DNA from: Leucoraja ocellata
Taxonomy: Eukaryota
Length of the DNA stretch: 64,000 nt
Direction of reading: 5' to 3'
Assembly (NCBI GenBank): GCA_036785375.1
Contig: JAWMAR010000009.1
Span: 8,928,001-8,992,000, forward strand
In this document: positions 2,840 to 51,559 of the stretch, one piece after another
How positions within the stretch are numbered: position 1 is the stretch's first letter
Layout of the letters: every line of letters starts with the position of its first letter
Program-made: the position numbers and the translations under genes
Notes under the pieces: generated by a model
What the model was told of the DNA's origin: nothing
Database searches by the model: none
The model's input: the letters and a program-made list of their open reading frames with translations, nothing else

Positions 2840-2989
2840 CTTCCGGTTTGGGTTTGTCGAGCAGCTTCATGACCTCGGCATTGGTGGGGTTCTGCCCAAG
2901 GGCTCGCATCACATCACCACACTGGGCGTAGGTGATCTTCATCTCACAGGACGGGGTCCTGTCGAAAAGGGCGAAAGCTTCCTTGAATT
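2840..2989 (-). CDS. MYL4: MYL4-like exon 3 ([40 protein letters not shown]...KPKPE)
   Basis: 150 nt, ctttcag/gtcagt boundaries; EF-hand ELC sequence inside ORF 2688..3050. Confidence 0.93.
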
Positions 2990-3069
2990 CTGAAAGTGGA
3001 GGCAAGAGGAACGGATTGGAACCATAGACGTGAGAAACATCAGACCACAATACAGAGCTAAACCTGAGA

Positions 3070-3490
3070 GCTGGCTACAGGGCCAGGGTACTGGGAATGG
3101 TCCAGCAATTAGTGCAGGTATAGGGATGGTATAAGTATAAGCACAGGTAGTGACAAGGTAACATATAGGGACAGGTAAAGGGGGGTGGTACAGGTATAGG
3201 GACAGATACACATACAAATGTAGGGACAGGGACAGGTAGAGTTTTAGGAACAGGGAAGGTAGAAGTATTGGGGTAGAAATAGGGGCAGGTACATGTATAG
3301 GGACAAAGACACAGAGAGGGACAGATAAAGAGACAGCTGCAGGAACTGGTATAGTGGCAGAAATAGGTACAGGAACAGGTAGAGATAGAGGCTGGTACAG
3401 TTATAGGGGCAGTTTCTGGTATAGAGACAGATATAGGGATTGGGGCAAGTGTAGGGTTAGGGACTTGCCCAGGTATAGGGACAGATACAA
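3070..3490. repeat. Degenerate purine-rich ~6/12-bp minisatellite (gggacaggtata-like) in MYL4 intron 2
   Basis: Recurrent caggta / gggaca / gtatag units. Confidence 0.6.
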
Positions 3491-3943
3491 CTAATCAGTA
3501 TCAATTAATATTGATATACTTCAGAATAAAGCATGCAGGTACGCAGTCACAAGAAAACAAACAGGTGTCTATGCTGTGAATGAACAATAATTAAATAGAC
3601 AAACTCAGCTCTGCCAACACATCAAACTTACGGCAAGTGGAGGAGACAAGATCAGTTTCACTGGGATAGGAATCAGAGAGTGAATAAAGTATGATCCTGG
3701 GTGCTTCAATGCAAGGAATGAGGTCAGTGTTGGATGTCAACAATATCAGGATTGGGGCTCTCCCCGGTGGCTGGGGTCAGTGTCCAGAGCAGGGGTCAGG
3801 GTAAATGTCTGGGGCTAAAGCTGCAGTCCTTGCTCAGGGTGGGGGTGTGGTGGTCGAGGGTGAAGGTCGGGGGAGCAGGTCAGTAACCGGACAGAGGTCG
3901 AGCTCAGCGTTGGGGTTGGAGTCCCTGCCTGACATCAACTCAC

Positions 3944-5488: not shown

Positions 5489-5954
5489 ACCTATTCCTTC
5501 TCTCCGGAGATGATGCCTGTCCAGCTGAATTATTATAGCTTTTGGTGTAGGGGTTAGGAGGTCATGTTGCAGTTTTATAAAGCACCGGTTAGGATCCGTC
5601 GCAACTCCGACCCCGCTGTCCGCCCGCTGCCTGGTGACCGGACACCGGGTAACAACTGTCGATGCCACAAGAGCGAGGACTCAGTCACCCCGGCTGCCCG
5701 TGGGGCCGCTCGCCCATTGACCGACAGCGGCCGAGGTCAGCGGACACCGGCCCCCGGCAGTCCCTACCTCACTCTCCGTCCCCCTCCGTCGACCAGCGGA
5801 GGCTGTGATGAGATCCGGGTGAGATGCGTTAACACCGTGAAGGGAGAAGACGGAGTGACGCTGTTTTCGCGGGCGGAGAGGTGACACATCAGGGGGGCCA
5901 CACACACAGTGCGGCTCTGGCAGAGACGCAAGCGGGCCCCGCGGCTCGTCCCCA

Positions 5955-6027
5955 CACTGGCCGGGCTCTGGGGGCCACTGGCCGGGCTCTGGGGGCCACT
6001 GGCCGGGCTCTGGGGGCCACTGGCCGG
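5955..6027. repeat. 21-bp tandem repeat, ~3.5 copies (cactggccgggctctgggggc)
   Basis: Perfect units read directly. Confidence 0.95.
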
Positions 6028-6666
6028 TGTGACCTCCAGGAAGGTTCCCCCAAATGTTTACCGGGTGCCCGGTGGCCTTGGACGGTACGTCCTCCGTGAT
6101 CACCCCGTTCCCCCCCTTCTTCCTCCCGCTTCTCCTCGGTCTTACTCCGGTCCTGTCCGACGTCTCCAGCGATGCCCCCACTCCAGCAACCCCCCCCCGG
6201 TATCGCCCCACTACCGGCACGGTGCGAGGAGCGGGTGGCCTGAAGAATAAGCGGCGGGAAGGTCGCGGAAGTTGGTGGTGGTGGGGGAAGGGGGTTGGTA
6301 CTGGGAATGAGGGGGGACACGGTGGGGTGTGAGAGACCGGGGGGGGGGGGGGGGGAGAATGGGGATCGGTGCCCGTTGTCGGCCCCGTGGGCAGCCGGGG
6401 TGCCTGCAGCTTTGTCCTGTGGCTGAGCCGTCGGGGCCGGGAGACGCCCGCTTCCCGCAGCCAGCCGTGCCCGGACAGCGGGGATGGAGCCGGGTTAGAC
6501 CGCAGAGAGAGACAGACTGCGAAGCGGCGGGGAGGGTGGATCACGGACGCCGGCCCGATGGCCGGAGGGGGGGGGTCGGTCCCGCAGTGTCGGCCGCTGC
6601 CGCCGCCCTGGACCGAGACAATAGCGGAGGGAGCGGAGCCCCGGAAAACAGCGGCCCGCGACCGGG

Positions 6667-6693
6667 CACTCACTCACTCACTCACTCACTCAC
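6667..6693. repeat. (CACT)n / (GTGA)n microsatellite forming the MYL4 exon-1 splice donor
   Basis: Read directly. Confidence 0.95.
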
Positions 6694-6798
6694 CCGCACA
6701 CTCTTTGGGTCGAAGGCCGGCTCCTTGGGCGGCTCGGGTTCCGCGGGCGGGGGAGCGGGCTTGGCGGCTTCCTTCTTCACCTCTTTTTTGGGGGCCAT
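6694..6798 (-). CDS. MYL4: Myosin essential light chain (MYL4-like) exon 1, MAPKKEVKKEAAKPAPPPAEPEPPKEPAFDPKSVR
   Basis: ATG in a GCCATGG Kozak context at 6798; MAPKK start plus Pro/Ala-rich extension typical of A1-type ELCs; 105 nt ending in a GTGAGT donor, phase 0. The MYL4 vs MYL3 assignment is inferred from sequence and from linkage to STRADA/DDX42. Confidence 0.88.
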
Positions 6799-6849
6799 GG
6801 CGGAGGGAGCGGAGTCTGCAGCGGCTGCGGCGGGCGGGACGAGCCGGCG

Positions 6850-6865
6850 AGGCTTATATATACGG
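6850..6865 (-). promoter_or_regulatory. TATA box of the MYL4-like gene, inside a GC/CpG-rich region (~5600-7100)
   Basis: TATATATAAG on the minus strand about 55 bp upstream of the ATG, embedded in GC-box-rich sequence. Confidence 0.65.
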
Positions 6866-7227
6866 GAGCGGGGCGGCGGGCGGACGGGCGAGCCGGCGGC
6901 GTCTGACTATAGATGGAAGCGCCGAGCATCCCCCGGGACCACGGCTGAGGGGGCTGACGGGCGGCTTCTCTCCGCTCCGCTCGGCTGCTGCTGACACAGG
7001 GCGAAAACAGAGTTGGCCCGGCCGGGGAGAGCGGGAGTGGAGTGGAGTGGGGCGAGGGGTGGGGTTTGAGGGAGGGGAGGGACGGGCTGGGTGCGTTTTA
7101 TTCAAAAAAGAGGAGGATTTGGACAGAGGGCTCGAAGAATGGACCTGACTTGATTGATGAGTACGGGTGTCAGGGGTTATGGGGACAAGGCAGGAGAATG
7201 GGGTTAGGAGGGAGGGAGAGATAGATC

Positions 7228-7271
7228 CAAAGATACTAGAGGAGCTTCTAGTAGATCCTCTAGTATTTTTG
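7228..7271. mobile_element. 44-bp palindromic hAT-like insertion, 8-bp TSD GATAGATC, inside a CR1 3' UTR
   Basis: Arms caaagatactagagga / tcctctagtatttttg; TSD at 7220-7227 and 7272-7279. Confidence 0.8.
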
Positions 7272-7553
7272 GATAGATCAGCCATGATTGAATGGCGGAG
7301 TAGACTTGATGGACCGAATGGCCGAATTCTGCTCCTATCTCGGTCTGAGCTCAAATCCCCGAGACTGGGCAAGGGACACAGTGCTCGCACCTGCCCCCTG
7401 TCCACCTTGTCCCCATTGACCTTTCCTCCCACTGATGGAAGGTTCACATTTGACCCATAGACCACTGACCGTCGACACCACCGACCCATGTCGCCACTGT
7501 CTTTTTTACCCTATCCCCACTGGCCTCTCTCCCCACTGATAGAAGGTCCTCAT

Positions 7554-7568
7554 CAAAGATCATCTTTG
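7554..7568. mobile_element. 15-bp palindromic insertion CAAAGAT-C-ATCTTTG, 8-bp TSD GTCCTCAT
   Basis: TSD at 7546-7553 and 7569-7576. Confidence 0.75.
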
Positions 7569-7896
7569 GTCCTCATTGTCCCTCGTAGATCACTCGCCAC
7601 TGACCCTACGACCTGGTTCCCATTTAATCCCTGCCACCACAACCCTCCATTCCCCCCGAACTCACACCCGTCTCCATTGACTGCAAAATCTGGTTGTCAA
7701 AAAAGAAGACATAAACAAAGTGCTGGAGTAACTCAGCGGGTCAGGCAGCATATCTAGATAACATGGATCGGCGACGTTTCAGAAAAGGAGTTGGAGGAGG
7801 GGTGAGGCAAGCAGAACATTTCACAGAGGCAGAGGCCGTGGCTGTGGTAGTGAAGGCAGGCGTTCACCCGCCCTCACTAAAGGAGGATGTTGCCAG

Positions 7897-7927
7897 CAAA
7901 GATTATAGAGCTCCTCTAGTATCTTTG
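7897..7927. mobile_element. 31-bp insertion with CAAAGAT...ATCTTTG ends, 8-bp TSD GTTGCCAG
   Basis: TSD at 7889-7896 and 7928-7935. Confidence 0.8.
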
Positions 7928-8589
7928 GTTGCCAGAGTCCCAGCAGGGGGACGGACGTGCAGGTCAGATTGTGCGTGAGCTGAGAATTCAATAAGAAGAG
8001 CTACTGGGAAGCAAAGTGCCGGAGAACCCGACATCTAGACAACATCTGTGGATAGAATAGATAAGAAATGTTGCAGGTCGGGACCCTTGTTCGGAATCAC
8101 CCAAAATGTTAGCTTACACTTACGTAGAACATGGAACAGTACAGCACAGGAACGGGCCCTTCGGCCCACATTGCTTGTGCCGAACACGTTGTCGAGCTAA
8201 ACTAAGCGTTCGCCTGTACACGATCCAAATTCCTCTATTCCTTGCATTTCCACGCAGCTATCTAAAACGCCTCTTAAACCCCACTATCGTTTCTGCCTCC
8301 AGCCCCCACTTCTGGCAACGCGCTCCAGGCATCCAATGGAATAAAAATAGACAAAGTGCTGCAGTAACTCAGCGGGCCAGGCAGCATCTCAGGAGAACAT
8401 GGATGGGTGACGTTTTGGATCGGGACCCTTCTTCAGAACCTTCACCCTTATAGTCAGACTCTTTATCCTTATATTGGATGAATCCCCTGGCCTAGAGGGG
8501 TAACATCCCATGGTGCTGGTGGAAAACAAGCGAGGAAATTGCATAGATTCTTCACCCCGCCATCTCCCCTCAACCCCTGACAAGCTTAT

Positions 8590-12377: not shown

Positions 12378-13957
12378 TGTTGGTAACTGTTGGTAATAAT
12401 ATCCTGTTCGGTGACATCTAATGGATGGTTTCTGACAACCAAATTACAGGTCAGGAGGTTCAAGAACATATGGTGGGAGAAAATAGACATTCAGGTGTGT
12501 TCTCAATATTGTTCCAAATGCTCATGAGATTCCAAGGCTTTCAGTATATCCTTTGTCCACCTGGTCACCCCTCCTGCAGTGACTTCATGTCCTTTTTAAA
12601 GAACATTAATTGTCGGAAGACAATGTCATGTAGTAAGCAGTGGACCTAGAGTCATGGAGTTTTACAGCACAGAAACGGGCCATTCACTTACCCACCCAGG
12701 CTGACTGTGATGGCTAATTCCGCTTATCCCTTTACCCACTGAAAAAGGACACAGAGTATGACTTTCCCCATGGTGAAAAGCAATGGACCCCTTTGTGGTT
12801 ATCATAGTTGCATATCTCTTAAAGATGGTCACAACTACAACATCTCCAAGATCTTCAGATGTTGGAACTGAAACCGTGGATTTGCGATTGTAGAGCAAGT
12901 CGAAACATTCCACAATGACCATGGCCACTATTCACTCTTGCACATATTGTTTTGTGCCAATTTACCAGCTTCACTGCATTGTCTGACCGCTCCACTGGTT
13001 GGAACCACAAATTGGCTGAGAACCGTGCTCATCGAGTAGAGGAAGGCAACGTCAATGGGTTGATGTTGAATTGACATGAGCTGCCCAGGGGACGCCTCTA
13101 AGTCGGCATCATAGCTTGGATTTCCTGTATGCTCCCAGCTGTAACTATGGGAACTCTTGTTGCAGTACTGGTGACACCCCCCAGATACATTGAAGGAATC
13201 TGACTGGGGCCTCTTGCAATGGCTAACATCTAAAAGGGTAAGGCTGCTTTGTGCGGTAATCTTCAGAACTCTGGTTAAGTTGAAGTTGTCAGTTGAGCCA
13301 GGATTCTCCTTGAACGGATTCTGACCCACAAAAGAATGACTACATTGGCCCTACTCCAGCTCTGAAGGACAAGCAATGAATCCAACATCAACTGCCAGTG
13401 ACGGTCTCAGCTGAGCCAAGTGACTCGCTACTGCTCAAATGCTTAAGTAAAAAGCTGGTACAAAAGCTGCATAGATGATGTAGTGCAGAAGGGTTTCACA
13501 TAGTTGTAACCAAATGAAACTTTAATATTGGTTGACTCTGAATAAATAACAATTCAGATACAAAGGGATTTCATGTAAGAAGGTAATAAAACAGTGAATA
13601 TTTCACGCTCTCAGTGTGATAGGAGAGATGAAGCACAGCATCTATCTGTAACGGATTCCAAAACAGTGGCTCTGTTTTCAAGATGGTCAAGAAGAGTGTG
13701 GACGTTATCTCTGCATTCATAGCAGGTTTGAGGACTGCTGCTGAACTCATGCTAACTGGTGAGAAAGGTGCAAGGACAATGCTTTCGTACTCACAAGGGT
13801 AAGAAAGCTACCTCCTTACTCACCAGAGGTGAGACCAGGTAAGGATAATCACTCTGTTCTCACATAAGATGTGAGTGCAATGCTTCAGCGCTCACTGGCT
13901 GCTGGTACAGTAATAGAAGGGTAATGGTTGCGATCTGAAATCTCTAGTATTCAAGTA

Positions 13958-15055
13958 CAATGGCCTCCATAATGTTTGGGACAAAGACCCATCATTTATT
14001 TATTTGCCTCTGTACTCCACAATTTGAGATTTGTAATAGAAAAAAAAAATCACATGCGGTTAAAGTGCACACTGTCAGATTTTATTAAAGAGTGTTTTTA
14101 TACATTTTGGTTTCACCATGTAGAAATTACAGCTGTGTTTCTACATAGTCCCCCCATTTCAGGGCACCATAATGTTTGGGACACATAGCTTCACAGGAGT
14201 TTGTAATTGCTCAGGTGTGTTTAATTGCCTCCTTAATGCAGGTATAAGAGAGCTCTCAGCACCTAGTATTTCCTCCAGTCTTTCCGTCACCTTTGATAAC
14301 TTTTATTGCTGTTTATCAACATGAGGACCAAAGTTGTGCCAATGAAAGTCAAAGAAGCCATTATGAGACTGCGAAACAAGAATAAAACTGTTAGACATCA
14401 GCCAGACGTTAGGCTTACCAAAATCAACTGTTTGGAACATCATTAAGAAGAAAGAGAGCACTGGTGAGCTTACTATTCGCAAAGGGACTGGCAGGCCAAG
14501 GAAAACCTCCACAGCTGATGAAAGAAGAATTCTCTCTATAATAAAGAAAACTCCCCAAACACCTGTCCGACAGATCAGAAACACTCTTCAGGAGTCAGGT
14601 ATGGATTTGTCAATGACCACTATCCGCAGAAGACTTCATGCGCAGAAATACAGAGGCTACTCTGCAAGATGTAAACCACTGGTTAGTCGCAAAAATAGGA
14701 TGGCCAGGTTACAGTTTGCCAAGAAGTACTTAAAAGAGCAACCACAGTTCTGAAAAAAAGGTCTTGTGGACTGATGAGACGAAGATTAACTTATATCTAA
14801 ACATGACTACTTTCATTTACATGACATTGCTGTGTCCCAAACATTATGGTGCCCTGAAATGGGGGGACTATGTATAAACACTGCTGTAATTTCTACATGG
14901 TGAAACCAAAATGTGTAAAAATGGCCTTTATTAAAATCTGACAATGTGCACTTTAACCACATGTGATTTTTTTCTCTTACAAATCTCAAATTGTGGAGCA
15001 CAGAGGCAAATAAATAAACGATGGGTCTTTGTCCCAAACATTATGGAGGGCACTG
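13958..15055 (+). mobile_element. Tc1-family IR-DR DNA transposon, internally deleted
   Basis: ~225-bp terminal inverted repeats (13958-~14185; ~14829-15055) with CCATAATGTTTGGGACA at both ends of each TIR; left TA, right TG; frameshifted transposase from ATG 14321 through TGRPRKTS to VLWTDETKINLY, then a deletion. Confidence 0.93.
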
Positions 15056-15235
15056 TGAATCAATGTACAGGTTGTGGTCCTTCACCCACCTAAGCTGGTT
15101 TGATGTGCACCCCTGCTATTCAGCATCTATTAGTGCCACACTTCGCTGTAAATCAGCAAAACTGCCATTTTACATAAAAAATACAAATAAAGACCAATGG
15201 CATCACCAGGCCCAGCTTGAACAACATGTCCACTT

Positions 15236-19415: not shown

Positions 19416-21381
19416 CTGTAGAAAAACAAAGTAAAAATTGTAAAAGTACTTTAGTTACTATCTGCAAACAACATTAGTAAAGCACTAGAACCCAGTTCCC
19501 AAGTGGTTGACGACCAGTTAACATGTGACCAACCCACTGTAAAACAGCAGTACTGACATGCTATTAAAAACCTTAAATTTAGATTTCTGAATGGCATTTA
19601 CATTAAAGAAACACCAATTTTATATAAGAATGAGGATTTTAGAGATTATCAATTTCTCACCACTTATTCCTCAACCCAAACATGACAATTATTTCCAACA
19701 GTAATCGAGTTGTGCTTTGAAACAAGAGATTAATAAACACTATCTTTCTCGAGTGTTTAAGGATAGTAGTTGCATGGGTACGTTAATACAGACAAGATGA
19801 AACTCTTTATCTTCTCTGACCAGATGGAAAAAAAATAATTTAATTCATTTACAAATCTTTGACATACAAATAACATGAGCAGATCCTGCCTTTGCCGAGT
19901 CCAAAGTTTTGAAATGCCTACCTGATAGCTCTAAGTACGATAAACTGACCATAACAAAACCGGACCAGGAGAAGGCTTTACAGCCCCTCAAGAAAGCTCC
20001 ACCATTGAAAATGATCACGACTGATCCAACTTTCCTCGTCCACTCGCCCATCTACATCCATAACCCATGGTTTCTTTACTGATTAAGTCTATCCATCTCA
20101 GCTTTGAATACATTCACAAATTCAATCTTTACAGTTTTCCACGGCAAGAGATATCAAAGGCACACAAACCTTTCATAGAAGAAATTCTTCATCTCGTTAA
20201 TTTGAATGAGACTCTACCCTATGGTCCTAGACGATCTCACAAAGGGAGACATTCTCCCATCATATACAAATCTTGCATGTTTCGATAGCCTCTCATTCTC
20301 TTGAACCTCATTGAGTGCAGATTCGATCTATTGAACCTTTCCTCTTGAGACAGTCACTCCATAAACAGGATCATTCTTGTGAACCTTGCCTGAACTGCCT
20401 CCAGCGATAATACATATTTAAGTAAGGTGACCAGAACTGTACATAATACACTCCTGCCTTGGACAATAGCAAGACGACTACTCTGCTTCTATATTCCACT
20501 ACCTTCAAATATAAGCCAGCATTACATTTGCTGCCCTGCTTGATCCTGTGTATGCTGGCTTCACATGCGGGGACCAAAAATCTGTTTCTTCCCTCCAAAG
20601 CTTAATATCTCCATTTATTTCCATGATTTGGTTATTTATCTTGATTCATTTCTCCTTCCACCCTTCCGAATCTTTCTTCATTGTAATATATTTTTGCTAG
20701 GAGTCATGAATTTGCTCCTTACATTTCTCCACTGCTTTTCTGTCGTCTTCTCTGCTAATTTATTTGCCTAATCCATTCGGCAACCCCATCCTCCATTGCT
20801 TTGCAATTCCCTTTATTAGGTTTAGAACATAGAACAGTATAGCACAGGAATGGATCCTTCAACTCGCAATGTTTGTGCCAAACATGGTGCCAAGTTAAAC
20901 TGATCTCATCTGCCTGAACATGATTCCCATTCCTCTATTCCTTGCACTTCCATATGCCTGTCTAAAAGCCTCTGAAACGCCACTATCGTATCTGCCTCCA
21001 CCACCATCGATGGCAATGCGTTCCAGATCCCCATTACTCCCTGTGCCCTGCACATCTCCATTACACTTTCTCCCCTCTCACCTTATAGCTATGCCCTCCA
21101 GTGTTGTACATTTCCACCATGGGGAAAAAGGTTCTGCTTATGCCTCTCAACATTTTATACACTTTCCTACACTGAGCAGTAGTGATTCAAGGTGATGGCT
21201 CAGAGCATTTGGGCATTTTGGAATTGTTAACATAATGCTGGCCTTGGCAATAATGCCCATGTCCTTATAGAATTGTGCAGCTCAGAAACTAACCCTTCAG
21301 CACACCTTCTCCATACTAATTGTGATGCCGAACTATACTAATCCAATGCAAACCTGTGCAAATACCTTTTAAACATTCTAA

Positions 21382-21697
21382 AAGCCCTGTCCCACGGTAT
21401 GAGTTCATTCCAAGAGCTCTCCCGAGTTTTTAATAAATCCAACATGTGGTAAGCACAGAGAATGAGCGTAGCGGGTACGTCGGAGCTCGGGGACGTCTCT
21501 TAGTGGCTCGTTGCGCTAACGGCAGGTACTCGGGAAGACTCGCTAACGGCAGGTAAGCACGGGAAGACTCGTGAAGATTTTTCAACATGTTAAAAAATGT
21601 CCACGAGAGCCCTGAGTACCGACGAGTGGCCATTACTGTAAATCTCCGAGTTCGAATCAGGGCAAACTCGGGAGAGCTCTTGGAATGAATTCGTACC
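21382..21697. mobile_element. PIF/Harbinger-like MITE, right end truncated
   Basis: Inverted arms (ggtatgagttcattccaagagctctcccgagttt and its complement at ~21664-21697); homologous to 40524-40822. Confidence 0.7.
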
Positions 21698-23329: not shown

Positions 23330-24944
23330 CTGAAAAGAACAAAATAAGTTGATTACTTAACCATGCTGATGATACAGAGACTGGGCAGGCTGGAATGTTT
23401 ACACCAGTGAAGGTTGAGGGGAGATTTAACAGAGGTGTGCAATTTATTAGAGTTAAAAAGCAGGAATTTAACTAAAGGAGGCTAGAAAAAAAGAACCGGA
23501 GACAAGGCAACCAGGTAGGAAGGAACTGCACATGCTGGTTTAATCCAAAGATAGACACAAAAGCTGGAGTAACTCAGTGGGTCAGGCAGCTCTCTGGCTA
23601 AAAGGAATAGGTGGCATTTCAGGTCAAGACACTGCTTCGGACAGAGAGATAGATTCTTGATTAGTACGGGTGTCAGGGGTTATGGGGAGAAGGCAGGAGA
23701 ATGGGGTTAGGAGGGGGAGATAGGTCAGCCATGATTGAATGGTAGAGTGGGCTTAAAGGGGAACAGGAAACAAGAGATAAAGATAAAGTGATATAGAGAG
23801 ATATAGAACAAATGAATGAAAGATATGCAAATAATAACAATGATCAAGGAAAGGTGGAGCCCACAATGGTCCACTGTTGTCTGATCTTTTATCGGTGGGG
23901 GATTCGGTGCACTGCATCTAAGGACAGTGGAAAGTTTAGGGAAGTGTAACTCATTAAGCAGGCTCAATGATGAGACAGCTTGATCCTTTGACTTAGTGAA
24001 TTGAGCCCAATAAACACTTCTTTCCTTGCCAGGTGCCCCTGCTTTGTGCAATGTACATTGGGGATCTCGTTACACGAAGATGCCACGTGCAAACTTATAT
24101 TGTTTCTCTGCGCTTTACAGATCTGCAAATGGTGTATTAGGGAATCCCTGCAGTATTCATTGTCACCACCTACACGCATTTAGTACTTGCACCATGCCAC
24201 AAGTTCAATTTTATCTGTGGTAACGTTTCACCTCCTTAACAAGCAAGTGTCTACTTCTGCCTTTAAAATATTCCACGATTCTTCTTCTACTGCCCCTAGA
24301 GTTCCAAAGATTCACGAAATGAAAAAGCACTACTGTGTATAAAACCCTATTCACAAAGTTTCAAGGGATGCATGATTGGGATTGTAGTCCATATGGAGTA
24401 CACATCGCCTGAAGGAGGAGACTCCTCCTTCAATCACTGCCCTCACTATGTGGCAGCTTAAACATTTACAACCAAATACAGCCAGTCCGAACTCAGCTTT
24501 CTCCGGAGATGGTTACCAGCACAGAGTTTGGTCTTCAGCCAATTACTAATGTCATTCAATGTGAATCAAATATCTGCATCAGGGAGAAAACACTCCAGTG
24601 GCTAGAGACATACTTTCCACAAAGGAAGACGAGTGTGGATTTCAGCGAACAATCATTCGCACCACTGTGTTCAACGAGTGTAACCACCACTCCTTCCCAT
24701 TGCTGAGTTTACTGCCATCAACATCCTGGGGAGTCATGATAGGAGAGGGAAGTCACCATTGATTACAGATTCAACTGGACCAAACACCATGGTGACATAG
24801 TGACAAGGTGGGAATATAATATACTCTCATCCTGCCTTTCTACAAGCATGGATTAGGGGTGCATTGGAATACTCTGGATGAGTGCAATTCCAATAATATT
24901 AAACAATATGCTGAATAAAGCAGCCCACTCAATTGGTACCTCAT

Positions 24945-26209: not shown

Positions 26210-26899
26210 CTGGTAAGGAGACCACATAACATAATTAACATCTATTTAAAATGGAACGCATCTGTGAACGACAGGTTTGGAAATCTGTCAGAACTAGACA
26301 GAAACTAGTGTTTATACGGGAACAGGAGCATTATCAAGCAAACTTTGACACAGAATCACCAGAAAATATTAACAAATGCGATGAAAAATTTGAAGAGGAG
26401 GTTTTCATTTCAAACAATGAAGGGAGGAAATTATGGTATCTGAAGATCCAACAGTCAGTGATTGTGACTAAATTTGAGGATGTTCAAGGGGCAAATATTA
26501 TAGGAACACTTAGAGGATATTATACAGGTAGGAGGGTGAAGCCATAGGGATTTAAAAATAAGTATGGAAAAACAAAACCAAGTGTAAGCACAAGTTGTTG
26601 AATGAATGGAACATGCAGCTTGCTGAGTTTGGGATGTACTCGGATTAATGGGAGAGAGAAGATAAGAATATGGTCAGGATGCAAGCCAAAGTCAGGCGAT
26701 ACAGAGGTAGAAACAAGCAGCCTGGTGGCAAACTCATCACAGAGTTACATATGGCCCCAACGTTGCAAGCAGCATGGCAATCAATAACTTTAACATTGCA
26801 CAATCCACAATGAATGGATTGGAAAGAGCTCAGCAACGTGAAAATGTAATACGAGTTTCAAAGCCACAATATTCTCCATGACTGGTGTGCCAAACTTAC

Positions 26900-27008
26900 C
26901 ATAGGCCATGAATGGAGTCACTATCCACACCTCATTGTTGGTGATCAATGTGGCTTTGTATGGTAATATATTGGGGTGGTGAAACAATTTTGATATGTGG
27001 AGCTCACC
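26900..27008 (-). CDS. STRADA: STRADA exon ([37 protein letters not shown])
   Basis: 109 nt, cactag/gtaagt. Confidence 0.95.
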
Positions 27009-32094: not shown

Positions 32095-32415
32095 AGGGCG
32101 GCTGCCTCACAGCACCAGAGACCCAGTGCACCAGAGCTCTGTGTGTAGTTTGCACCAAAGATCTTATAGCGGAGCTATAGGATCTTTGGTTTGCACGTTC
32201 ACCCTGTGACTGCATGTGTTTCCTCCGGATGCTTTAGTTTCCACCCACATCCCAAAGAAGTGTGGGTTTGTAGGTTAATTGGCCCCTGTAATTTGACCCT
32301 GGTGTGTTGGGAGGGGATGCAAAAAGTGAGATTATATAGAATTAGTGTGAACAATGATTGGTCAGCATGGTCTTGGTGGGCCGAAGGGCCTGTTTCCATG
32401 CTGTATCTTTCAACC
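32095..32415 (+). mobile_element. V-type/HE1-like SINE with CR1-like tail (other copies ~43690-44125 -, ~54515-54930 +, ~61240-61450 +)
   Basis: gctgcctcacagc head, tttgcacgttc..cccacatcccaaaga..taggttaattggc core, gggccgaagggcctgtttcc tail. Confidence 0.75.
32156..32188. mobile_element. 33-bp palindromic insertion, 8-bp TSD GTTTGCAC, nested in the SINE
   Basis: caaagatcttatagc-gga-gctataggatctttg; TSD at 32148-32155 and 32189-32196. Confidence 0.8.
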
Positions 32416-39334: not shown

Positions 39335-40523
39335 TTTAATTTACAAGGAGTGAAATAAAACCCAACTACATGAAAAATGAGAACACCATGATTGCCAGCA
39401 TGATAACCTGAGTGACGATGGATATTGCAGTCAGTTCAATAGTAAAATGAACAATAAAAATTTGAAGCCAAATATGGAAAATGCTGGAAGCTTTCAGAAG
39501 TTCAGAGAACTTGCATCCAAAATTTTCGCTTTCAGATCTGATCATCTGGCTAAGAAATTACTGCATTTTCTAGAATTCATCACGACAAACAACTAACGCA
39601 ATACTCAACCATTCCACAACCATCGCCGAGGGTTCATTTAGATAAGTACTGGGAAGCATCAGCTTCACTGATTGGTATGAGAGCTTTATATAGACACAAA
39701 GAATTGTGTCTTACAGGAGAACCAGGGAAACATATTGCAAATATTGAACAGTAAAGAAAATTAAAAACTGCTTAAATCATATGAGTCAAATCAAGAAAGT
39801 CAATTTTCTTTTGCCAAGTGGGTTGTGGAAGTAGGGATATCATGCAAAGAATCTCACACAGGTTATTATACAAGTATATAATATTGAGCTAGAGCACTGA
39901 CAGGCTGAAGGTTACAACATTAAAAGTGAAAAGGCACCAGACACAAATGGACTTCAGCATAAATAAGTTTATTTTGCAACAGTGTCCAATGAAAAAGCAA
40001 ATGCTAACTATAATCTTAGACTATGTAACATCTGAACCAACTGTCTGAACAGAATCCGATGATATATGGTATCCACATTGATTCCACGTTAAAAATAAAT
40101 AAAATTAAATTGCATTTGGAGCTCTTTTGGAAAGTTTCAATCTAGACATGTTTAGGTTTGAATATAACCGCAAATATTTTATTTTGATGTCTCGACCTTC
40201 CATGAAATACAAACATCGTGGATCTTTGTAACTCATCTGCTTCGGATGATGGTATTTATGTTGCATTAGCTCATTGATTAATTTAATTATGTGCATTTGA
40301 TCAGATGTTTCAGGTGTTTCTATGAAACAAACTAGAAGTGTATAAAAAGGGAAATCAACAAATTGCATTCCGAACATAATTGCATTCAGAACATCAAAGA
40401 TATTAAGAAAGAAAGTTACCATGTATACTGTGTTCTCTATGAGCTTCATTGCACCCTATAACAATAAACTAATCTGAATCTGACGTGACCCAGACAGAGA
40501 GAAAGAGTCAAATTGATCTCTAA

Positions 40524-40822
40524 AGCCCCTGTCCCACTGTACGAGGTAATTCAAGAGGTCTCCCGAGTTTAAAAAAAAACTTGTGGTAAGTACGTAGAAT
40601 GTACTTACCGGGTACGTCGGAGCTTGGAACGTCTCTTAGCAGCTCGCAACACTAAAGGCAGGTGTTCTGGAAACGCGGTAAACTCGTGAAGTTTTTTCAA
40701 CAGTGTGAAAAATGTCCACGAGAGCCCCGAGTACCTACGAACGGCCATTACCGTAATTCTCCGAGTTCGAATCAGGGGAAACGCAGGAGAATTTAATTAC
40801 CTCGTACAGTGGGACAGGGGCA
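40524..40822. mobile_element. PIF/Harbinger-like MITE, complete
   Basis: 27-bp TIR gcccctgtcccactgtacgaggtaatt; TAA/TTA flanks. Confidence 0.8.
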
Positions 40823-42377
40823 TTAGATGAGATTCAACAAACCCATACACCAACCTCTATGTCTATGTCAGTGTCAGACAAAACTATGTCAGTTTTCTGA
40901 AATGTAAATTCATGCCTGCCAACATTGGCACAATAACTTACCACCAAATAGTCCCACGTCCTGCAGGCTCTCGACACCCAGCTTTTCAGACACCCACCGC
41001 TAGGGCAGCAATTCCAAAAAAAGACATGGCAACAAAAAGAGAACCACCATTAATAGCTTTACTATACACTTCTGTGATATTTTACATAGCTTTCATTGTG
41101 CTAAAAATAAACAAATTGCAACATCAGAACCAGATGAACATCATGTAATGCTGAAGAACCCCTGGGGTAGATGAAAAACACCATTGTGAACCACACACTA
41201 CCACCATGGAGATGTCAAAACCTGCCTCCAGTGAGTGTCACAGAGATGGTGAAGATGAATACCACCCTGTCCACCAGAAATGGCAGAAGGTAATGACTTA
41301 ACAAATTCCACAACTCGGATCATACAAGGCCACAATGGAGGAGGGTACCTCAAACTAGAGGAATAGATACAGGTGTTTTTCTTTTCTGTTTTTGATTATT
41401 AGAAGAATCCTTGTGAATTATAGTTTGTGGCCATCTGTTCTCTTTGTGCAGAACCAGACAAAACACATTTGGTTGTTAGGCAGTAGGCATTCAATAGAGA
41501 AATTATATCTCTCTCTCTCCATCTCCTTTGTTAATTATAATCACTGACTATTCTGGAGTATTTTAGATAGAATGTTGGTGGTATCTAGATTTGTCAGCTT
41601 GCAATCACCTTCAATCTTTACAATGGCTTTTGTTTACAAAAAAAGTTTGTTGCTTTCATTTGACCCGATTCCTAACCATTTCTGGATCCTTTGAGAAGAT
41701 ATCCGTAACTGTTGCATATATTTCAGCCATTTTTTCTTCCAGTGAAAAACTGATTTACAGCAGGATCTTGATGAGAAAGATTTTGCCCAGCATTATGAAC
41801 CCCAAATATAGATCTAACATGAAATAAGTGTGGCTAAGGGGAGAATCTTATAGATGTTTATAAAAATATGAGGGACATAATTTTGAGGGACATAACCTGA
41901 CTCTTGGGCCCCACCTAACGCACTGGCCCTCCTCACAGAATGGCCGACTCCATTTTCCAACTCTCGGATCCGACTGGATGAAGCCAGGAACTTAGGAAAT
42001 GTGGGAGATGTGCTGGTTTTCAGTCGAGATTGAAACAACATGGTTTCAAGGTGAAATGGGAGAAATTTAAAGGAGATCTGAAGGGTAAACTTTTCACACT
42101 GAGAGTGGTAGTGATCTGGAACAAGACGCCAGAATATCGTAAGGGCAAATACAATGACAATGTTCCAAGTAATTTGGACAACTACTTGGATAGAAAAGGC
42201 ATAAAGGGACGCTGGCCTAATGTAAGCAAATGGAATTAGTGTAGATAGGCATCACAGTCTGCATGGATAATGTTGGCTGAAACCACCCATTTCTGTGCCG
42301 TTTGATTCCATGGTAGGAAACTATGAGGTATTGAAACAAATAAGGAACAACATGAACTAAAATGAAACTTGACTTAC

Positions 42378-43951: not shown

Positions 43952-45767
43952 AACCTACAAACTTGTATGTCTTTGGAATATGAGTGGAAACCAGAGCACA
44001 CGGAGAAAACCCATGCAGTCACAGGGAGAACATACAAACTCCGTAAAGACAGCACCCGTAGTTGGGATCGAACCCGGGTATCTGGCACTGTAAGGCAGCA
44101 ACTCTACTGCTGCGTCACTGTGCCGATTTTCTATTTGGTGGTGTTTCTAATTGATCCAAGGTGATATTTAGGTAGCTGGGCTACAGTTCCCAGGACACAT
44201 TCTATGCATTTCATATGAATGCATTGTGAGTGCTGCACAAGTCCTCCATCACCTTAATATGCTATTGACCATTGGTGGCAGTGTGCCTGCTATTTTTTCT
44301 TCCAGACTTTATTTATAAAATGCATATGCAATCCATCCAGGATGGAAGCTTTATCACATTTGGTCTGTTTATTTATGAATTCACTTGTTTTCTCCTCCTC
44401 CCTCATCTCATCATCCCACCTTCTATTTCACGTAGATACTAAAGCAAAATTCAGGCATTATGGGGGGTGGGGGGGAAAGAAGAGAGAGAAAGGGTTTGTG
44501 TTCCTAGAAAATGCTCCACATTGCAATTTTCCTTATCATGAAGCCAAGTATCTGTGCATATGTCAAGAAGGGAGTTGGAAAAAGAGTGATTTATTTACTT
44601 TTTTCACATGAAATCCATGAGATAAAGTTTCATTTCTTATCAAAAACCTTTGGCAATGGGTAAATATCAGTAATCCAAACATAACATGGGATTACCTGCA
44701 ATGATTTGACATTTCTGCCATCTCTAACGATACTAAACTGACAATCCCTGAATATACCTGCTTCCATTCCAGTATGAGGAAGGGTTCTGAGCAGAAAGAC
44801 ACCTATCCATGTACCTGTATTCCAGAGATGCCGCCTGACCCACTGAGTTACTGCAGCACTCTGCATCTTTTATTTGTAAACCAGAAACTACAGTTCCTTA
44901 TGTCTCCATTCTTATCTGTTTTTGCGGGGTGTAGGGTTTAAAGTAATATTTTTTTACCTTTATAATTTAACTTCTAAATTCCACTTACGGTTGTTTTTTT
45001 TTACTTCTTTACCAATCCCTTTGTATCTTCTCTCACCTTAGACGCCTCAGCTGATTTGGACCTAGACGGCAATTGTTCTCTTTATCTTTACTCAGCCACG
45101 GACTCTCACAAATGTCCAGTTTGTTTTTCCTTGCAGCAGAACATTTCCTGCATTCCATTTCAAATGTTCACCGACTTTTAGCTATTTTATCCTCCAAATT
45201 TAAGTCTCAGCCCCTCAAAAACCAGTTTTACTCCAATCTATAAATCTGTTTTTTTGTCATGTTTATACCTATCTTCACCCTAAAGCACAATATATTATGA
45301 TTTCTATTGGCTCTATGTTGTCTCATCTTCACTTCTATCAGCCTTGATTAATTCTTTATTAATCAAAGCTTCTGGCAGATGTTGAGGTGTGAATCACTTC
45401 TGTTGAAGTGAGGGGAAATCAGATCACCCTAAAAGAGTAAAAGATGTAGTGGTACCCAGGAACAACCCTGCAGCACACAGTAACATTACATATTGCCAGT
45501 ATCAGGCATACATCCACAGATTTTCCAAAAAAAATATCAGAGGCAGCAATGCTCAGGAGAATGGGTGGTGGGGTGACACCCAGACGCACACCAGCTCAAA
45601 TAGTACGGCCCTAAGAACAAAGATATATAATTTGGCCTGTTTTACACTCCACACGAAGAGACGACGTTTGAAACATGGAACATCAGGATTATCATGGACA
45701 ACCCTAGTCAGAATTGACCCGATTGCCATTCTGCTTAAATTGCAGATAAAATTACAATGCGATACAC

Positions 45768-47899: not shown

Positions 47900-49150
47900 C
47901 TGTACATTAGGTCCATATACCTACTACCCTTTGTGCCAAAAAGGTTGCCCCTCAGGATACTATTAAATATTTCCCCCCCTCACCTAAACCCATGTCCTCT
48001 GGATCTTGATGTGCCTACTTTGCTTAAAAGACTCGGTGCATTTACCTTATCTATTCCTCTCATGATCTTATACACTTCTATAAGAATTGCCGAATTAAAC
48101 TCCATTAGCCATTCCATGGTGCACATACCCAGCTGATCAAAATCCTACTGTACCTCGTGGTAGCCATCTTCACGGCACAATATCGCCTATTTCAGTGTCT
48201 TCTGCAAATTTACTGATCATGCTGTGCACATTCTCATCCAAAGAATTGATATAGATGGCATATTGCAATGCGCCAAGCATCAATCTCCAAAGCACCCTCC
48301 TAGTCACAAGCCTACAGTACAAAAAACAACCTTCCACCAAACTCTGCTTCCTTCTATGAAGATAATCCAGTTAGTTAGCTCTCCATGGATCCCATGCAAT
48401 TAAACCTTCGAGAGCACCCTACGATGCAGAACATTATCAAAGGCCTTGGTAGAATCCATATGGATTATGTCTATGCCATACGCTCACCAAACCCTGGTTA
48501 CTTCTTCTAAAAACTCAATAAAATTCATGAGACACAACTCCCCCATACAAAAACATATTGATAAACCCTAATCAACCCCTTTTTGCAAATCCATGTGTAT
48601 GCATATTCCTCACAATCTTCTTCAGAAACTTTCCTACCACATTTCTTAAGGCTTACTGGTCTATAGTTCCCAGGTTTTTCTTAGCAGCTGGTCATCAACC
48701 GAGGCCCAAAATTTGCCACACTCCAGTCTTCTAGCACTTCGCCCCTGTCCAACAATCATTCATTATCTAAGCCAGGATTCCTGCAATTTCTTCTGCATCC
48801 CACACGGCCGCAAAAATTGGCGTCCTGATGTTATGAAAGACCTGGGAGATTTATCTACCATCATGGTCCTGTATAGTTCTGACCACAATATAGAAAGGAC
48901 ACGATTGTACTGAAAGTGCAGAGGATATTCTGCAAGGTGCTCTCTAGGGTAAAAAATTTCAGTTGTGAGGCAAATTTGAATTTGTTTACTTTGGAGCCGA
49001 GGAAGCTGCGAAGGAACCTAATTGTGAAACACAAATTATGAGCAGCGTAGATTAGACAGGTAGCAAACAAGTTCTCCCCTTTGCAAAGGCATAGAAAACC
49101 AGAGGTTTATACATGTTGTCAAACCAGAGTTGATATAGAGGAGCATGAGG
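47900..49150. mobile_element. Degraded CR1-type LINE RT fragments in both orientations
   Basis: atcaaaggccttg (DF.KAFD on the minus strand) and other RT remnants. Confidence 0.65.
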
Positions 49151-49560
49151 AGATTATGGTGTTGGAGAGATACAAGAATTTCTTTCATCTAAAGGATGTT
49201 TGGATCTTGAAAGTATTGCTTTAGAGTAAGGGACAAGGCCTGGATCTCACACTTCCTCTCGCAATATTGCACCCGAGTCAATCATCCAGGATGGGGTTAG
49301 CTCTCAAACCTCCGCCTCTGGTAATGGACAGCGGCACCGATTAAATGCGTACAAAGTGCCGTCTCTCTAGTAACCACCCGCAGGTCCGCGCCCCCAAAGG
49401 CCAAGCTGCCCGAACGCTGCGGCTGCTGCTCGACCCACCTGCCGCGACCTGCGGCCGCTCTCCAGCGACTGGGAGTGCGAGCAACCACGAGCTCTGGCTG
49501 CCTTTCCGCGACGGGCTGGCAACGATGACCGTGCAAAGCCTCAGCCCCTCACTCACTCAC

Positions 49561-49700
49561 CTCACTGCACCTCGGCCAGCGCTCTCCTCTGGGCGGGTAC
49601 ATCCGCCAGATGTCCCGCCTCCACCAGTCACCGCCATTGGTGCAGCTCCAGAGCGTGACGTCGGCGGCCAGGGAGCGGCCACCCATTCCGGCCTGTGATT
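49561..49700 (-). other. STRADA: Putative non-coding exon 1 of STRADA (5' end approximate)
   Basis: CpG-rich segment ending in a GAG|gtgagtgagt donor at 49561/49560; YY1-like CAATGGCGG nearby. Confidence 0.6.
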
Positions 49701-50019
49701 GGAGCACCCAGCCATCAATCATCCTCCACCTGCTCCTCCCCCAGCGCTCGGTCGCCAGGACGTTGCTAAATACAATCCCGGTCTCCATTACTTTTCGATT
49801 TAAAAAAAATAACGAGCGATTGTCTGCACGTAGCAGAACTCCAGCTGTTATTATCCAGGCGCTTGGTGATCGACATTTTTGTGTGTGTGTGTGGGGGGGG
49901 TCGTCGTCGTTGCACTTTGACCCAGTGACATCACGTAGTTTAATCGCGACGTTGTCTGAGTTTTTAAGTTTGTTGGCGCGGGTGAAACTGGGCAGGAGTT
50001 AGAACCGGGCCGACGGAGC

Positions 50020-50280
50020 CAAGTCGGGGTTTAGGCGGCGACTCCGTGTGTGGATCCGGAGCCAGGCGGGTCGGGGGGCCGGCGGTGGGCAGTGCGCAGG
50101 CGCGGCGGTGGGCAGACGGCGGCCGTTTCGCTGCTCGGTGTGAGGGAAGGAGGAGGCGGAGCGGCCCCGACCCTCACACACACACCCACACACAACCCAC
50201 CGAGCCATAGACGCACCAACGGAACCGGCGGCGTCGCCATCGCCACTCCCCAACCCCACGCTCACGCCACGATCTGCTGG
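50020..50280 (+). other. DDX42: Putative non-coding exon 1 of DDX42 (5' end approximate)
   Basis: GC-rich segment ending in a TGG|gtaagg donor; the next exon has an acceptor 7 nt before the ATG. Confidence 0.6.
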
Positions 50281-50420
50281 GTAAGGTGTTAAACTCCGGC
50301 GATGTGCTTTTCCAGTGGTCAGGCTTCTCGGGCCTACTTCTGTTCAAGGCCTAGAGTGGCGCTTGGTCAGCCCACCCCAACCTCAGGCGCCCCACAATAC
50401 CTCCCATCTCCACCATCAGT

Positions 50421-50448
50421 CTGAAGAAGGGTCTAGACCCGAAACGTC
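50421..50448 (+). ncRNA. Minimal hammerhead ribozyme motif (best-preserved copy) in a Penelope-like pLTR (~50390-50550), DDX42 intron 1
   Basis: CTGAAGA-A-GGGT(CTAG)ACCC-GAAAC-GTC. Confidence 0.6.
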
Positions 50449-51559
50449 ACCTATTCCTTCTCTCCAGACATGCTGCCTGCCCCGCTGAGTTACCCCAACA
50501 TTTTGTGTCATCTTTGGGTTTAAACAGGCATCTACAGTTCCTTCCTACACATCCACAGCCCGGCAGCGGTTCCACTCCCACTTCACTCCTGGCAGTGAAC
50601 ATAAGGTAGGCAAGGGCAGGGAAGGAACGTGGTACCATAGAAGTATACTGCAGGGTTAGAAGAAGGGTTTCGACCTGAAACATCACCCATTCCTTCTCTC
50701 CCGAGATGCTGCATATCCCGCTGAGTTACTCCAACATTTTGTGTCTATCTTCGATGTAAACCAGCATCTGCAGTTCCTTCCTACGCATGATATTGTCGGT
50801 TCCACAACAAATATAAAAACATATTGGCACGAAAGAGAAATCATATGGTCCGTGTGCCAGTACTACTTCCTTATTTCACAGCAAACACATTTCTAAAACT
50901 TCCAACCAAAAATGTAGGTGGAGAAATGCCACTAAAAGGAAAATACTATCCAGCACGATCACATGTAAACATGATCCTCTTGCAACCTACCCCCCCCCCC
51001 CCCCTTCCCGGGGGCATTGGACTTTGTCTACTAGGCTACAATGCAGAGAACTATTTTCTGTATGTGCCTTCCTTTTGTTGTATCTATTATACTTGAGGTT
51101 GAACTGACTATATGGTATATCTTATCTGTTTGGATAGCATGCAAAACAAAGCAGTTTGCAGTACCTCTGTACATGTGATGATAATAATAAACCTAAACTC
51201 AATGTTGTTGCTTTGTAAAAATCTTAATGTTTCAATGCTCTGCTCCACTGAGTACTATTATGTAATATACTATAGTATGTATATATATGTTTATATATAG
51301 TATAGTGAGTAACATACATTATGTCTTGTGAATCCATCCTAGTATGTCGTACCTATATAATTAGCTGCCTACCAGCAGTTCTGATCAATCTACATTATCA
51401 CACTAATAATTTTTTGTTAATTGTCATAACTGATGATGTAGAATAGTATTTTTCTTAACATTTGCATTCTGGTGAGCAGCTGCTATGTAATCTCTTGCCT
51501 TTTTAATGTACAGGGTATATTTCCTTTTTCTCATTTCAAACGTATTTATCCAGGGCTTT

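Follow-up and report, generated by a model that had tools for sequence, protein, structure and literature searches.

Short insertions with inverted CA...TG ends in a skate genome as probable excision scars of a P-superfamily DNA transposon

The transposase of the Drosophila P element cuts one DNA strand at the end of the element and the other 17 bp inside it, and creates an 8-bp duplication upon insertion (PMC7776569). Because the second strand is cut inside the element, the donor site keeps 17-nt tails of each end (PMC7776569), and in flies these 3' tails are retained between the 8-bp duplications (PMC2895639). The fly junctions listed in Table 1 of the latter report include one of 16+12+16 = 44 bp with filler and one of 8+1+7 = 16 bp, as well as recurrent joins of 30 bp (14 isolates) and 32 bp (5 isolates) at 2-nt homologies; templated fillers are described there for polymerase theta repair (PMC2895639). 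P elements prefer promoters and hop locally (PMC7776569; PMC3878927), and the P transposase binds internal sites of the element (PMC7776569).

P-like elements have also moved in vertebrates. Zebrafish Pdre2 belongs to a P-like family with 8-bp duplications of the target site (TSDs), and its termini begin with CA like those of the fly element (PMC2895639; PMC10983969). It differs from the skate sequences described below by its 13-bp terminal repeats of another sequence, and natural scars consisting of element ends only are not described in the part of the Pdre2 report consulted (PMC10983969). In fly cell assays zebrafish THAP9 caused larger flanking deletions than the fly enzyme (PMC10983969), which counts against the reading as P scars that we propose here. 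The hAT transposons (hobo, Hermes, Tol2) and their MITEs likewise have 8-bp TSDs, with the target NTNNNNAN or GTNCGNAC (PMC3878927; PMC3276498). As hobo (GTNCGNAC) and P (GTCCGGAC) share the GT....AC pattern and the 8-bp TSD (PMC3276498, Table 4), neither the target motif nor the length of the TSD can tell P and hAT apart. The two superfamilies differ in excision: hAT hairpins are formed on the flanking DNA and the footprint is random (PMC3878927), so that hAT excision is an unlikely source of both element ends between intact TSDs and should not leave 15-20 nt of each end there.

The window analysed here, a stretch of 64,000 nucleotides from Leucoraja ocellata, contains four short inserts with CA...TG inverted termini of the CAAAGAT type, each flanked by a perfect 8-bp TSD. 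These are a 44-bp insert at 7228-7271 (TSD GATAGATC at 7220-7227 and 7272-7279; site span 7220-7279), a 15-bp insert at 7554-7568 (TSD GTCCTCAT; site span 7546-7576), a 31-bp insert at 7897-7927 (TSD GTTGCCAG; site span 7889-7935) and a 33-bp insert at 32156-32188 (TSD GTTTGCAC; site span 32148-32196), none of which is assigned to a strand. Direct inspection of the window bore out the positions and duplications that a previous sequence-only reading had given for them. The four copies comprise four lengths and three end types, and all four fold into hairpins with z-scores of -3.3 to -7.2. A strict search pattern overlooks the 44-mer because its right end carries one substitution; a scan free of any end sequence, which only demanded perfect 8-bp repeats around an insert of 14-100 bp with inverted ends matching at 6 or more of 7 positions, recovered exactly these four inserts. 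The comparison with shuffled sequence, which the sequence-only reading had suggested, came out in favour of the inserts, since 100 dinucleotide shuffles yielded a mean of 0.16 such structures (maximum 1, none starting with CAAAG) against the four observed. In viral DNA the two 7-mer ends were matched 120 times by chance, in no case with a TSD at one mismatch or less. No further degenerate copies were found in the window at one mismatch per end. A loose 34-bp candidate at 19686-19719, with two mismatches per end, was taken as chance, and so was a 93-bp CA..TG match with an 8-bp repeat at 3203-3295 in low-complexity sequence; a low-complexity tandem-like repeat occupies about 2940-3500, within an intron of the myosin light chain gene described below.

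Three of the four TSDs begin with GT and carry an A at position 7, in line with a GT-N4-AC preference, and three of four match the hAT target NTNNNNAN. The same preference is seen in the reads discussed below, where GT-N4-AC is the consensus of the eight bases preceding other copies of the 31-mer in each of the four runs (17-23 contigs per run; with orthologous loci in common, the runs are not independent). The target bias noted from the sequence is well founded.

The architecture of the inserts differs from copy to copy. The 44-mer can be read as an 18-nt arm, a 10-nt filler (7246-7255) and a 16-nt arm, or as 16+12+16. Two 7-mers found nearby, one in the arm and the other at the end of the TSD, together account for nine of the ten filler bases, and only a fraction of 0.0015 of 20,000 random fillers is covered this well; the filler is locally templated. 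The 15-mer consists of 8+7 nt or 7+1+7 nt, while in the 31-mer two different arms are joined at a central AGCT. The 33-mer, which lies within a SINE-like repeat, has a related end type and again a central AGCT. This tetranucleotide is central in the 31-, 33-, 34- and 36-bp forms (the 34- and 36-bp forms come from the reads) and stands at the end of the left arm in the 44-mer. The arms are 20 nt or less in all four copies, and the 64-kb window contains neither a longer element that combines these ends with a TSD nor a copy of intermediate length. The left TSD and the start of the 15-mer together spell ATCAAAG at 7552-7558, which we take to be a TCF/LEF-type site; the 15-mer is kept in four organisms, yet its flanks are kept as well.

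For three of the four inserts the window holds a paralogue of the flanks in which the target is present once and the insert is lacking, and these sites are therefore insertions with duplication. The 44-mer interrupts the tail of a very high-copy retroelement, which we assume to be a CR1 element, and the uninterrupted form of this repeat that had been reported from the sequence is indeed present at 23671-23754 (plus strand). A local duplicate of the flanks of the 15-mer lies at 7404-7470 (plus strand), and a SINE-like paralogue corresponding to the site of the 33-mer at 43981-44050 (minus strand). No empty-site paralogue of the 31-mer at 7897 was found in the window. Together with the perfect TSDs of all four inserts, these empty sites uphold the view that the inserts are transposon-derived insertions.

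Independent short reads were used to follow the inserts in other organisms. The stretch is present, whole or in part, in 20 of the 24 listed runs, which belong to four organisms (A-D), and eight runs were compared in detail. The 15-mer is bridged without loss by one contig per run in four out of four runs, one from each organism; over a length of about 410-430 bases these contigs show 0, 6, 10 and 20 differences from the window, and the sums of their gaps rule out a loss of the insert. The 31-mer is bridged by a contig in organism D (X18, X19), both of its junctions are found in organism C (X16), and its left junction in A and B. The 15- and 31-mers are therefore not products of assembly collapse and are older than the split of the four organisms; both are old and common to several organisms. 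The runs covering 7554 or 7897 showed no empty orthologous site; a gap in coverage was not counted as a missing insert. The 44-mer has no bridging contigs, since it is flanked by a repeat of very high copy number.

When the region 7790-8060 was compared with the reads, 83, 76, 89 and 84 records per run were obtained, most of which match the insert only. The summed read depth is 11,000-36,000 on the 31-mer and 7-21 on its flanks, but no copy number can be taken from it, as one copy is counted several times by overlapping contigs. The flanks of the other copies are unrelated to each other (consensus agreement 0.41-0.57). These numbers point to a presence of the 31-mer type at many loci, probably hundreds, some of which may have been copied inside larger repeats. 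A variant with 3 additional nucleotides (34 bp) was found in 7, 9, 9 and 10 contigs per run and one with 5 additional nucleotides (36 bp) in 1, 2, 1 and 1 contigs. Among the 32 of 337 pieces that were listed, at least six lack 5 nt and at least one lacks 3 nt; they are probably 26- and 28-bp forms, the position of the gap not being given. At another locus, represented by one contig, a 25-nt repetitive filler is found. This comparison catches relatives of the 31-mer only and says nothing on long elements.

A relative of the 33-mer was found in DNA unrelated to the window. A metagenome contig (L003, 39% G+C) carries a 33-mer that is identical to the copy at 32156 at 31 of 33 positions. At this place (2954-3005 of the contig) a 7/8 repeat displaced by 3 nt is seen rather than a clean TSD. 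Besides the 33-mer the contig, which consists of AT-rich DNA, has nothing in common with the window; our impression is that of non-coding animal DNA. The shared sequence is a hint that the same family may occur in a distant animal.

The parent element was searched for in several collections. Among the 214 open reading frames of at least 70 amino acids in the window, Pfam gave no match to P or hAT transposase families, but a fragment of a Tc1-type transposase, an EF-hand and otherwise weak matches only; no Rfam family matched the window. When the ends were paired under relaxed criteria, at distances of up to 12 kb, 11 pairs resulted, among them the 15-, 31- and 33-bp inserts. The other eight match the ends at only 8-10 of 17 positions and were taken as chance. 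Scans of viral collections gave 0, 2 and 0 matches, and the two matches, which have no second end in the 60 bases inspected, were likewise ascribed to chance. A search of one viral record for the P transposase family found no match, although this record is uninformative on the family. Two scans of prokaryote genomes gave no match, and the metagenome scan found one short copy, that of L003, and no parent. The terminal motif of P elements is in its fuller form CANRG; a literature search for it found nothing. Nor did the literature searched describe these end sequences, P elements in skates, sharks or cartilaginous fish, or natural P scars; subscription journals and repeat databases lay outside the search, and earlier cataloguing is possible.

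Other transposons also lie in the window. A Tc1/mariner element of about 1.1 kb is located at 13957-15056. Its long inverted repeats extend over more than 200 nt, divided into two segments, and are 93-94% complementary; a transposase HTH fragment (PF01498, E 2.7e-20) lies at 14367-14750. An ordinary MITE with a length of about 310 bp is present twice, at about 21384-21697 and 40519-40827; its inverted repeats of 34-36 nt are unrelated to the CAAAGAT ends.

Three of the inserts are found upstream of a gene on the minus strand which encodes an essential myosin light chain of the MYL3/MYL4 type. Its best PDB match is MYL3; it may be MYL4, the name used in the sequence-only reading. A CpG island (5501-7000, minus strand) covers its start, with a TATA-like box at about 6855 and the ATG at 6798. 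The distances from this ATG to the three inserts upstream are about 0.43, 0.76 and 1.10 kb. That three of four uniformly placed points fall within 700 bp has a probability of 0.0014, and the clustering described before is accordingly non-random. The proposed targeting of promoters is borne out only in part. Three of the four copies are within 1.1 kb of one promoter, whereas a second CpG island at 49.0-50.5 kb (49000-50500), probably the STRADA promoter, is without insert, and the fourth copy lies in CpG-poor DNA. This 33-mer is located between a STRADA exon (26793-27008, minus strand; PDB match E 1.5e-14) and the second CpG island, and probably within a STRADA intron.

The inserts are real transposon remnants which work like the excision footprints of Drosophila P. 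That they are excision scars of a P-superfamily DNA transposon and not mobile units themselves is, in our opinion, the probable explanation, and membership of the missing parent and its transposase in the P superfamily is likely. According to this explanation, a longer element with these ends would have inserted at a site of the GT-N4-AC type and created the 8-bp duplication. Its transposase would then have excised it by a long staggered cut, by which the outer 17-20 nt of each terminal repeat would be left on the chromosome as single-stranded tails. The host may have joined these tails at short homologies, namely at the central AGCT or GC in the 31- and 33-mers and near the tips in the 15-mer, while the tails of the 44-mer would have been joined with the locally templated filler. 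The resulting scars would have become fixed, and would be immobile and functionless. Three scars within 700 bp would reflect repeated landing beside a CpG-island promoter, as known for P elements.

The similarity to the donor-site junctions of Drosophila melanogaster P extends to the 8-bp duplications around short remnants of both termini, the CA...TG ends, lengths of about 15-44 bp, joins at short homologies, templated fillers, the GT-N4-AC target and perhaps the promoter bias; the insert set of the window matches the fly junction classes. On the other hand, the terminal sequence in the skate is a different one, and the skate inserts are natural, fixed and common to species, while those of the fly are laboratory-induced. 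Furthermore, the arms in the skate may reach 18-20 nt, and the parent and its enzyme are putative.

The lengths of the arms bear on the cut. With up to 17 nt per end the 15-, 31-, 34- and 44-bp forms can be explained, while those of 33 and 36 bp require either 18-20 nt or a filler that recurs. The recurrent 36-mer is longer than 17+17, and on the assumption of similar parental ends, which the L003 copy suggests, the right arm of the 33-mer would measure 15 nt and the left one at least 18 nt. A strict 17-nt cut of the fly type therefore fails without recurrent filler, provided that the repeats are symmetrical, because in both the 36-bp form and the 33-mer one end must have contributed more than 17 nt. 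The simplest rule would be tails of 18-20 nt that end with GAGC and anneal on GC, which would give 18+18-2 = 34, 20+18-2 = 36, 15+18-2 = 31 and 20+15-2 = 33 bp and would predict a form of 38 bp. Arms of 18-20 nt are a hint at a cut longer than the 17 nt of the fly; brief gap-repair synthesis before joining, or asymmetric ends combined with a 17-nt cut, would also do.

Several other origins have to be weighed against excision scars. An artefact of the assembly, in which longer palindromic MITEs were collapsed, or mere chance is hardly credible to us. Hairpins such as these can trouble an assembly, and the bridging by reads covers the 15- and 31-mers and not the 44- and 33-mers, but independent short-read contigs span the 15-mer in all four organisms and the 31-mer in organism D, so that the collapse considered in the sequence-only reading is refuted for the sites at 7554 and 7897, and chance is opposed by the 0.16 structures in shuffled sequence against four observed. 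We also regard it as unlikely that the inserts are extreme internal deletions of a longer element with 8-bp TSDs, of hAT or P type, caused by aborted gap repair or by central palindrome collapse, in which case the length of the arms would not be set by a transposase cut. The collapse of long palindromes from the centre, which had been considered from the sequence, is possible. Arms of 18-20 nt exceed the 17 nt of the fly, any deletion should produce joins at short homologies, and the target motif suits hAT too, all of which is compatible with such deletions; random loss, however, predicts neither the templated filler nor the close match to the fly junction classes, and the arms are no longer than 20 nt in four out of four copies, with no intermediate length in 64 kb.

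That units of 15-44 bp were themselves moved by a hAT-type transposase as a micro-MITE family, one of the two possibilities named in the sequence-only reading, appears highly improbable. The perfect TSDs, the recurrence of the 31-mer type at many loci, with its excess of summed depth over the flanks, and the near-identical 33-mer in the L003 DNA would all agree with mobile units. But MITEs are uniform in length and sequence, and here four copies have four lengths and three end types, to which the 34-, 36- and probable 26- and 28-bp forms elsewhere are added, a poor fit to any family moving as a unit. Enzymes of the hAT type need subterminal sites, and 15-44 bp are too short for the pairing of ends. 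The internal binding sites of the P transposase would be too large for such units as well (PMC7776569), and identical junctions arise in flies by independent repair, in 14 isolates in one case (PMC2895639). The assignment to hAT itself finds no support, as the 8-bp TSD and GT....AC are equally true of P, and instead of a hAT-type footprint lacking long end remnants, 7-20 nt of each end are found between two intact TSDs.

As excision scars, the inserts would be a variant of the known repair of P donor sites. The repair mechanism is already known and no function is implied for the inserts. The long staggered cut of P has been characterised in Drosophila, and the literature searched contains no natural vertebrate case. 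Inserts of 15-44 bp fall under the usual repeat filters; a repeat survey counted only insertions of more than 80 nt, and P is not named in the part of this survey at hand (PMC4350176). A wider claim, namely that skates carry hundreds of fixed P-type scars, that the cut made by the enzymes of these transposons falls on a shared GAGC motif 18-20 nt within the ends instead of at the fixed 17 nt of the fly, and that the 33-mer in animal-like DNA results from horizontal spread, is tentative, and we would sooner expect it to fail than to hold. If it is true, the AGCT-centred lengths of 31, 33, 34, 36 and the predicted 38 bp would show where an unstudied vertebrate transposase cuts, the near-identical 33-mer would mark the horizontal spread of the family, and the scars would map promoters that were open in the ancestral germline. 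If the inserts are P scars, the skate genome would be a natural record of the chemistry of the P cut and of end-joining in the germline.
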